This document shows positions 52,932 through 53,084 of a stretch of 64,000 bases of DNA, in pieces (position 1 is the first letter of the stretch; each line of letters opens with the position of its first letter). The notes beneath the pieces were generated by a model. That model ran no database searches, had not been told where the DNA came from, and saw only the letters and a list, made by a program, of their open reading frames with translations. The DNA is taken from positions 45,079 to 109,078 of the IMG/VR virus record IMGVR_UViG_3300034418_006779. The stretch is one strand, 5' to 3'. Source of the stretch: a virus. The position numbers and the translations under genes were made by a program.

Positions 52932-53084
52932 CGGAGCCGAGGGGATTCGAACCCCTGTCATCCTAGAATTACGAAGCGCTTTGTATAAGCTACACGTATT
53001 AGCCCTGTCTAGAATCAGACTAACAAGAGGTCGAAAGACTTCATCTTCAACTAGGCTAACCGTGTAAGCCAATACGCAGGCCCC
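52932..53084 (-). ncRNA. Mini tmRNA-like RNA (about 153 nt)
   Basis: GGGGCC/GGCTCC acceptor with G3.U70, no D stem, TACACG/CGTGTA helix, GAC before the AGGGG TTCGAAT CCCCT T arm. Confidence 0.65.

Follow-up and report, generated by a model that had tools for sequence, protein, structure and literature searches.

A 153-nt tRNA-like RNA lacking an anticodon arm in a tRNA-like gene cluster of a putative marine crAss-like phage

Genomic context of the element

The analyzed window, a stretch of 64,000 nucleotides, comprises bases 45079-109078 of a 109-kb IMG/VR contig with an estimated completeness of 61%. The replicative helicase and a second helicase encoded in this genome share 30-33% identity with their counterparts in Crassvirales that infect Bacteroides, Cellulophaga and Flavobacterium, and the genome that hosts the element described here is, judging by its sequence, that of a marine crAss-like phage.

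The element is a 153-nt tRNA-like RNA gene on the minus strand (52932-53084; nt 1 of the RNA corresponds to position 53084 and nt 153 to position 52932), delimited by its sequence, its fold and a global match of the Rfam tmRNA model at 52929-53084. It is situated between two tRNA-like genes of the same strand, both detected by ARAGORN and the Rfam tRNA model. The upstream gene (53091-53164, 55.8 bits) has a 6-nt anticodon loop, CUGGUG, and the downstream gene (52846-52920, 41 bits) has the anticodon CAA, a short variable arm, C37 and a class-I body. A preliminary description of this DNA had called both neighbors aberrant tRNAs, in agreement with the 6-nt loop of the one and the class-I body with CAA and C37 of the other. 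The spacers, which had been given as 6-10 nt, are indeed 6 nt on the upstream side (53085-53090) but 11 nt on the downstream side (52921-52931). The flanking protein genes, an AAA-ATPase gene (53238-54296) and a gene for a 202-aa protein (52202-52810), also lie on the minus strand, and neither a sigma-70-type promoter nor an intrinsic terminator was found within 52600-53500. No smpB gene was found in the 109-kb contig (61% complete), and a search with the tmRNA model found no full tmRNA gene in it. None of the other tRNA-like genes of the phage encodes CCA.

Searches for homologues returned no usable relative, either with the flanking proteins against INPHARED, with the flanking proteins, alignment A1 and protein P0002 against IMG/VR, or with alignment A1 against JGI metagenomes and GTDB genomes. 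Likewise, no orthologue of the element DNA was found among GenBank phages, and DNA patterns run against IMG/VR and metagenomes recovered nothing but tRNA-Ala genes and other tRNAs of the ordinary kind, together with true tmRNAs. The protein of the neighboring gene does have relatives at 60-99% identity (P0002 at 78% on a 109,877-bp Logan contig, P0003 at 60%, and the cluster P0013-P0020, of which P0014-P0016 are near-identical variants). All readings of the 153-nt element presented below rest on a single sequence.

Structure of the 153-nt RNA

The two ends of the RNA form an acceptor stem of 6 bp, in which the 5' strand GGGGCC (nt 1-6; 53079-53084, minus strand) pairs with the 3' strand GGCUCC (nt 147-152; 52933-52938, minus strand) with a pair probability of 0.92. 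The 3' strand supplies U70 of the G3.U70 pair and is the same as the 3' ends of true tRNA-Ala genes. The seventh pair is a U.C mismatch (U7.C66), and the discriminator is a G at 52932, followed by CAA; CCA is not encoded. The T arm, AGGGG-UUCGAAU-CCCCU (nt 129-145; 52940-52956, minus strand), was detected by a T-arm scan and has an Rfam posterior probability of ~1 and pair probabilities of 0.83-0.97. The trinucleotide GAC stands 5' of the T stem.

Between the acceptor strands, the minimum-energy fold and the pair probabilities place an irregular rod of ~24 bp. Its 5' strand (nt 10-32; 53053-53075, minus strand) consists of GUAU, GGCU and ACACG-GUUAGCCU, with pair probabilities of 0.78-1.0, and its 3' strand occupies nt 80-102 (52983-53005, minus strand). 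The rod is capped by two hairpins, hairpin A (nt 34-55; 53030-53051, minus strand; pair probabilities 0.3-0.8) and hairpin B, GUCUG-AUUC-UAGAC (nt 65-78; 53007-53020, minus strand; pair probabilities 0.64-0.79). UACACG/CGUGUA and UUAGCC/GGCUAA, which the preliminary description had singled out as P2-like helices, form the core of the rod, with pair probabilities of 0.8-1.0. A weakly structured segment, possibly a relic of a tRNA-Ala body, extends over nt 93-128 (52957-52992, minus strand); nt 103-128 are poorly paired, and the distance between the rod 3' strand and the T arm is 26-35 nt. The GG of the GUAUUGGCUUAC stretch is paired in the minimum-energy fold. The RNA features reported previously at 52932-53084 are confirmed as real, since the acceptor with G3.U70, GAC in front of the T arm, the length of ~153 nt and G73 can all be read on the minus strand.

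An important question is whether such a structure could have arisen by chance. The unconstrained minimum-energy fold has a free energy of -53.3 kcal/mol (z = -3.05), and none of 200 shuffled sequences folded as well; an alternative fold with a 4-bp D-like hairpin (nt 95-107) lies only 1.8 kcal/mol above the minimum. Every 200 nt of this genome should contain, on average, 0.23 6-mers that can pair with GGCUCC, so the acceptor pairing alone is not rare. A chance origin is nevertheless unlikely because the acceptor begins in exact register 6 nt after the preceding tRNA and is accompanied by a perfect T arm and the rod. A manual check with and without the insert found no pair-forming 5-bp anticodon stem in any register; therefore, the 153-nt RNA cannot decode.

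Comparison with tRNA-Ala genes

The last 25 nt of the element, which comprise the T arm and the acceptor 3' strand, are identical (25/25) to those of 17 tRNA-Ala genes that ARAGORN identified in metagenome contigs. The 5' ends of these genes are GGGGCC or GGGGUC, the former being that of the element. A pattern scan found the same T arm in a real phage tmRNA as well. Since the acceptor/T half is identical to tRNA-Ala and also close to phage tmRNAs, it cannot separate the two origins. The features in common with bacterial tRNA-Ala are thus the 5' GGGGCC, the last 25 nt and G3.U70, whereas the element differs in having no cloverleaf or anticodon arm, ~84 nt of additional sequence, G73 and the U7.C66 mismatch. 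With the Rfam tRNA model (RF00005), a local match without a cloverleaf was obtained (20.8 bits against a cut-off of 29; 52938-52994, model positions 6-65).

Candidate relics of tRNA-Ala are present at nt 92-128, namely, UAGCUU..AAGCG, UUCGUAA (nt 110-116, compared with UUCGCAA in tRNA-Ala) and AGG..GAC (compared with AGGUC). The 3' segment may correspond to a relic of the tRNA-Ala body with its D stem, anticodon loop and variable loop, in which case position 7 is followed by an insert of ~84 nt, the rod.

These similarities bear on the possibility that the element is a decaying tRNA-Ala pseudogene, split by a hairpin-forming insertion of ~84 nt between positions 7 and 8 and with an eroded anticodon stem, whose RNA would be without function, if it is made at all. 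The 3' 57-62 nt that produce the local match to the tRNA model and the D-stem-like, anticodon-loop-like and variable-loop-like stretches that align to tRNA-Ala are compatible with such a history, as are G73 and the U7.C66 mismatch, both of which resemble decay; constraint is not visible from a single sequence. However, the 6 bp of the acceptor, formed across 140 nt, are perfect, as is the T arm, the decoding half alone being altered, and the same pattern of a retained top half recurs in the other tRNA-like genes of this genome. Outside the T arm, the 3' body is only marginally similar to tRNA-Ala, with 28 of 500 shuffled sequences scoring no worse. The insert is a highly stable rod, and no second copy of it or of its arms was found in the 109-kb genome, which removes a repeated mobile hairpin from consideration. 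It also counts against this reading that dead genes are rarely kept in phage genomes. We regard a pseudogene as unlikely, though worth serious attention; if the element is indeed a decayed tRNA-Ala, it is an example of a kind of gene that is overlooked by tRNA finders and the tmRNA model alike.

Comparison with tmRNAs

The element was further compared with tmRNA (Rfam RF00023), with the tmRNA features given in a review (PMC3968760) serving as a checklist. Its score is 17.5 bits in the global mode and 18.9-20.3 bits in the truncated mode (cut-off 47), and among the models of the tRNA clan it is that of tmRNA that scores highest here (E = 2.8e-4 when 3.3 kb are searched, 2e-6 per genome). The same model applied to controls gave 43.2 bits for the TLD-only gene of phage DS6A, 46 bits for phi14:2, 58.2 bits for FpV4 and 76.8 bits for G002. 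In the global alignment, the tRNA-like ends alone were matched, and 324 of the 374 model positions were deleted. High posterior probabilities cover the 5' portion up to and including GUAUUGGCUUAC and the 3' portion that starts at GAC and takes in the T arm and the acceptor 3' end; GUAUUGGCUUAC aligns to the D-loop analogue with a posterior probability of at least 0.9, and the tandem G.A pairs of the model are flagged as non-pairs. The missing alignment named in the preliminary description as a refutation is therefore not what was observed: both halves of the tRNA-like domain align end to end, although with a score far below the cut-off. Moreover, the confidently aligned part is not specific to tmRNA because an acceptor and a T arm of this kind are common to tRNA-Ala genes.

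ARAGORN made no tmRNA call at default settings. With -ps50, it returned a "permuted" candidate across three genes with the comment "Tag not identified", which we rejected as an artefact. No Ala-rich C-terminal tag in the right place was found in the three reading frames, in line with the earlier statement that no AA-ending tag frame is evident, and the idea of a tag-less ribosome-rescue RNA gained no support. The pseudoknots PK1-PK4 were not seen in the tmRNA-model alignment or in the secondary-structure fold, where the interior consists of two simple hairpins. Of the tmRNA features, the G3.U70 acceptor and the T stem-loop are present; A73, the pseudoknots, a tag frame and a score of 47 bits are not, and the D-loop and H2 features are ambiguous. 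A73 is a key determinant for AlaRS (PMC3968760).

The element is thus not a demonstrable member of the tmRNA family, and its designation as tmRNA-like holds in part: the tRNA-like ends, the missing anticodon arm and a long helix at the place of H2 argue for it, while the score below 47 bits and the lack of pseudoknots and a tag argue against it. The order of parts is the same as in the TLD and H2 of tmRNA, i.e., the acceptor 5' strand, a short GG-containing stretch, a long interrupted helix, GAC, the T arm and the acceptor 3' strand. G3.U70 is common to both, and phage tmRNAs likewise do not encode CCA. Unlike tmRNA, the element has no pseudoknots, resume codon, tag, H5 or tandem G.A pairs, and it has G73.

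The closest precedent is the TLD-only tmRNA gene of phage DS6A (JN698994, 28478-28560), which is 83 nt long, has A73 and scores 43.2 bits. Hudson et al. listed this gene as "TLD only" and noted strong inhibition of tmRNA by a similar molecule, which perhaps titrates SmpB (PMC4131195). According to the 2025 paper on the tmRNA database, expression of the DS6A form in E. coli inhibits the endogenous tmRNA, and other tmRNAs without a CDS are reported from some mitochondria and from Mallomonadaceae plastids (PMC11915505). The DS6A gene resembles the element in being phage-encoded, in its GGGGCC.../...GGCUCC ends with G3.U70, in its T arm, in the absence of an anticodon arm and a tag frame, and in a global tmRNA-model alignment that runs through the two ends only. 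It differs in its tmRNA motifs UCGAC and GGCAC, its A73 and its much higher score (43.2 vs 17.5 bits), whereas the element has 153 nt, the 24-bp rod with two hairpins, an extra stretch of 26-35 nt, G73 and a position inside a cluster of tRNA-like genes. Compared with the size of DS6A-type RNAs (65-85 nt) and their tmRNA-specific motifs, the element is longer, contains UCGAC/GGAC in part, and has ends that are equally tRNA-Ala-like.

Full-length tmRNA genes were identified in related phages. That of the Flavobacterium phage FpV4 (KT876724.1, 81947-82361, minus strand; 58.2 bits) has a tag ending in VAVAA, and that of the Cellulophaga phage phi14:2 (KC821624.1, 4031-4502, plus strand; 46 bits) encodes the tag GSSVQKLAMVA according to ARAGORN. 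In both, H2 abuts GAC, A73 is kept and CCA is not encoded. A weaker match to the tmRNA model was obtained in the uncultured gut phage MT835492, and tmRNA genes in flavobacterial phages were reported earlier for phage Calle (PMC8776804). Given the full tmRNA genes of FpV4 and phi14:2, interference with trans-translation by phages of this group is plausible.

Several further observations were made on these genes. Neither tmRNA is present in the corresponding GenBank record: the phi14:2 locus lies under four tiny "hypothetical" CDS (partly under gp012 and gp015, wholly under gp013 and gp014), and the FpV4 gene sits in an unannotated gap of 2.3 kb. Their PK1 regions are nearly identical. The phage contig IMGVR_UViG_3300010885_059224 contains, near a tRNA cluster, a 434-nt tmRNA (4092-4525 of the locus examined, plus strand; 76.8 bits) with an unusually long predicted tag of 31 aa ending in ELLAA.

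Could the element then be a true tmRNA derivative, that is, an ssrA gene of the phi14:2/FpV4 kind that has lost its pseudoknots and tag and serves as a TLD-H2 decoy titrating SmpB (and AlaRS) and blocking trans-translation? The global tmRNA-model alignment of the tRNA-like domain points in this direction, as do two matches made by eye, without a chance estimate: UUGGCUU-A of the element agrees with the D-loop analogue of FpV4 at 8/10 nt, and UGAC with the T arm and acceptor agrees with the 3' end of the phi14:2 tmRNA at 26/32 nt. Full tmRNAs in related phages with none found in this contig, together with the DS6A precedent (PMC4131195, PMC11915505), are in keeping with such a derivation. On the other hand, the 17.5-20 bits of the element compare poorly with the 43.2 bits of DS6A and the 46-58 bits of phi14:2 and FpV4, the tandem G.A pairs are not formed, G73 replaces A73, and a gap of 26-35 nt separates the rod from the T arm, whereas H2 of the phage tmRNAs directly adjoins GAC. 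Inspection by eye found no likeness in the interior of the element to the conserved PK1 of FpV4 and phi14:2, and the ends held in common are equally tRNA-Ala-like. We consider this derivation quite unlikely.

Other tRNA-like elements of the genome

Several more anticodon-less tRNA-like elements sit between same-strand genes in this genome. An expanded tRNA-like RNA at 50784-50902 (minus strand) has normal acceptor, D and T arms, but its anticodon arm is replaced by a three-way junction of ~62 nt; the tRNA model gives it 39.4 bits with a 54-nt insert. In a second one (55489-55603, minus strand), an acceptor and a T arm are combined with a long-range GCUG/CAGC helix that closes a branched insert. 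Such repeated retention of the top half with replacement of the anticodon region suggests selection on the top half over random decay. Of the tRNA-like acceptor stems in the window, seven were read, a count that leaves out an upstream tRNA-Gly outside it, and G3.U70 occurs in one of the seven, that of the 153-nt element.

The tRNA at 56552-56626 of the window (minus strand; 40.1 bits) has a 6-nt anticodon loop, UUGGUA, for which ARAGORN reports a 2-nt "anticodon", as it does for 53091-53164; both genes are otherwise high-scoring. The gene at 20493-20567 (minus strand) has the anticodon UCA, is called tRNA-SeC by ARAGORN, and can be drawn with a 6-bp stem and a 5-nt loop or, alternatively, with C33; the standard code leaves the long ORFs of the window open, and a TGA-suppressor role for this tRNA is not obviously needed.

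The arrangement of these elements raises the question of whether the 153-nt RNA is a processing signal of the t-element type, whose top half would recruit RNase P and 3' trimming enzymes to cut a polycistronic message at a point separating the AAA-ATPase gene from the gene downstream while the rod stabilizes the RNA end. Its position between same-strand genes, with no promoter or terminator found nearby, and the similar placement of the other anticodon-less elements would suit such a role. The "species 1" stable RNA of the T4 tRNA cluster is likewise a non-decoding mimic of the acceptor/T arm co-transcribed with phage tRNAs; it has no known alanine determinant or rod. A known analogue is provided by the t-elements of plant mitochondria, non-decoding acceptor/T-arm mimics matured by tRNA enzymes, which also have no known alanine determinant or long rod (PMC1920247). 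However, the two flanking tRNA-like genes of ordinary size would already give cut sites, and a processing signal leaves G3.U70 and the 24-bp rod with its two hairpins unexplained, which makes this explanation very unlikely.

Finally, an intron-bearing tRNA, e.g., tRNA-Phe(GAA) with a CCUAG/CUAGG anticodon stem after splicing, is extremely improbable: CCUAG and the UUGAAGA after it (nt 30-40) would fit a stem with a Phe-type loop, CUAGG precedes a 5-nt variable loop, GAAG/CUUC extends the helix and group I introns occur elsewhere in the window, but the Phe fold is 8-10 kcal/mol worse than the rod fold with a pair probability of ~0, no D arm fits, an ARAGORN run that permits introns makes no call at normal stringency, the insert matches no intron or ribozyme family, removal of the insert still leaves no sound anticodon stem, the insert of 77-85 nt is too short for a group I intron, and we know of no splicing system for an insert of this size. 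A "tRNA-Tyr(ata)" called by ARAGORN at -ps70 was discarded as junk that borrows the 3' end of the previous tRNA as its acceptor.

Two other candidates were rejected. A search of the insert for small ribozymes or other Rfam families gave nothing relevant at E up to 10. A Y RNA or YrlA associated with Ro60 does not fit, as the termini form the acceptor itself, no Y RNA family matched, and no match to a TROVE (Ro60) gene was found in the 109-kb contig (61% complete).

The group I introns of the window were identified with Rfam at 35634-35865 (minus strand, 92 bits) and 37632-37786 (minus strand, 59.9 bits), and an ORF for a GIY-YIG endonuclease (35828-36649) overlaps the former.

Proposed nature and role of the element

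The reading that we prefer, and to which we give about an even chance, takes the element for an alanine-type tRNA mimic that is processed but does not decode, that has the topology of the TLD and H2 of tmRNA and that is derived most economically from tRNA-Ala. A derivation from a phage tmRNA instead is possible. The points that weigh against a mimic are the single sequence, G73, the U.C seventh pair, the absence of smpB, a TROVE gene or any other partner gene from the 61% complete contig, and a tmRNA score that is far under the threshold and driven by features common to tRNA-Ala.

As a mimic, the RNA would be transcribed together with its two tRNA-like neighbors, probably on the message of the flanking protein genes. 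Judging from its position and intact top half, host RNase P would cut at G1, and 3' trimming after the discriminator would be followed by CCA addition, as for the other tRNA-like genes of the phage. The mature RNA would present an acceptor/T-arm top half that cannot be told from that of bacterial tRNA-Ala, including the G3.U70 alanine determinant, with the decoding parts replaced by the ~24-bp rod and its two terminal hairpins and then by a poorly paired stretch, and it would read no codon. Its partners would be factors that read the top half: RNase P, the CCA-adding enzyme, T-loop modification enzymes and AlaRS, and perhaps EF-Tu and SmpB. The most probable role would be that of a stable mimic or decoy of tRNA-Ala or of the tRNA-like domain of tmRNA. 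Alanylation by AlaRS is plausible from the sequence, although weakened by G73, and binding of SmpB is speculative. The SmpB/AlaRS decoy role put forward in the preliminary description is hypothetical for this RNA and has a precedent in DS6A.

A more far-reaching proposal is that the phage built a look-alike of the TLD and H2 from tRNA-Ala and not from ssrA, and that this RNA accepts alanine, enters or blocks trans-translation or alanine-tRNA pathways and belongs to a suite of top-half mimics. We hold this to be quite doubtful; if true, the tmRNA front end would have evolved convergently in a virus. To our knowledge, very few message-less tmRNA-like RNAs of phages have been published (DS6A), and little work has been devoted to their role in infection. 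A case from a crAss-like phage that is larger and built in another way would widen the known mimicry of tRNA and tmRNA by phages, and the 153-nt RNA offers a concrete molecule with which to probe phage interference with ribosome rescue or alanine charging. The decoy idea itself is an already known concept, published for DS6A (PMC4131195, PMC11915505).

Further tRNA-like elements were observed in other phages. In phi14:2 (KC821624.1), a tRNA-like element of ~90 nt at ~1760-1849 (plus strand) has the acceptor CACGGGU/ACCAGUG with 6 of 7 pairs, a normal D arm, the T arm GAAGG-UUCGAAU-CCUUC, which resembles the T arm of the window element at 55489-55603, and no recognizable anticodon arm; it is not called by ARAGORN. 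The Bacteroides phage crAss001 (MH675552.1) has an unannotated expanded tRNA-like RNA of 142 nt (96200-96341, minus strand) with the acceptor GGGGAUG/CAUCCCC, the T arm GUUGG-UUCGAGU-CCAAC and a large insert, as well as a second unannotated element with a T arm near 96477. Both lie just downstream of gp96, annotated as a TROVE/Ro60 protein, and they are possibly Y-RNA-like partners of this phage Ro protein.
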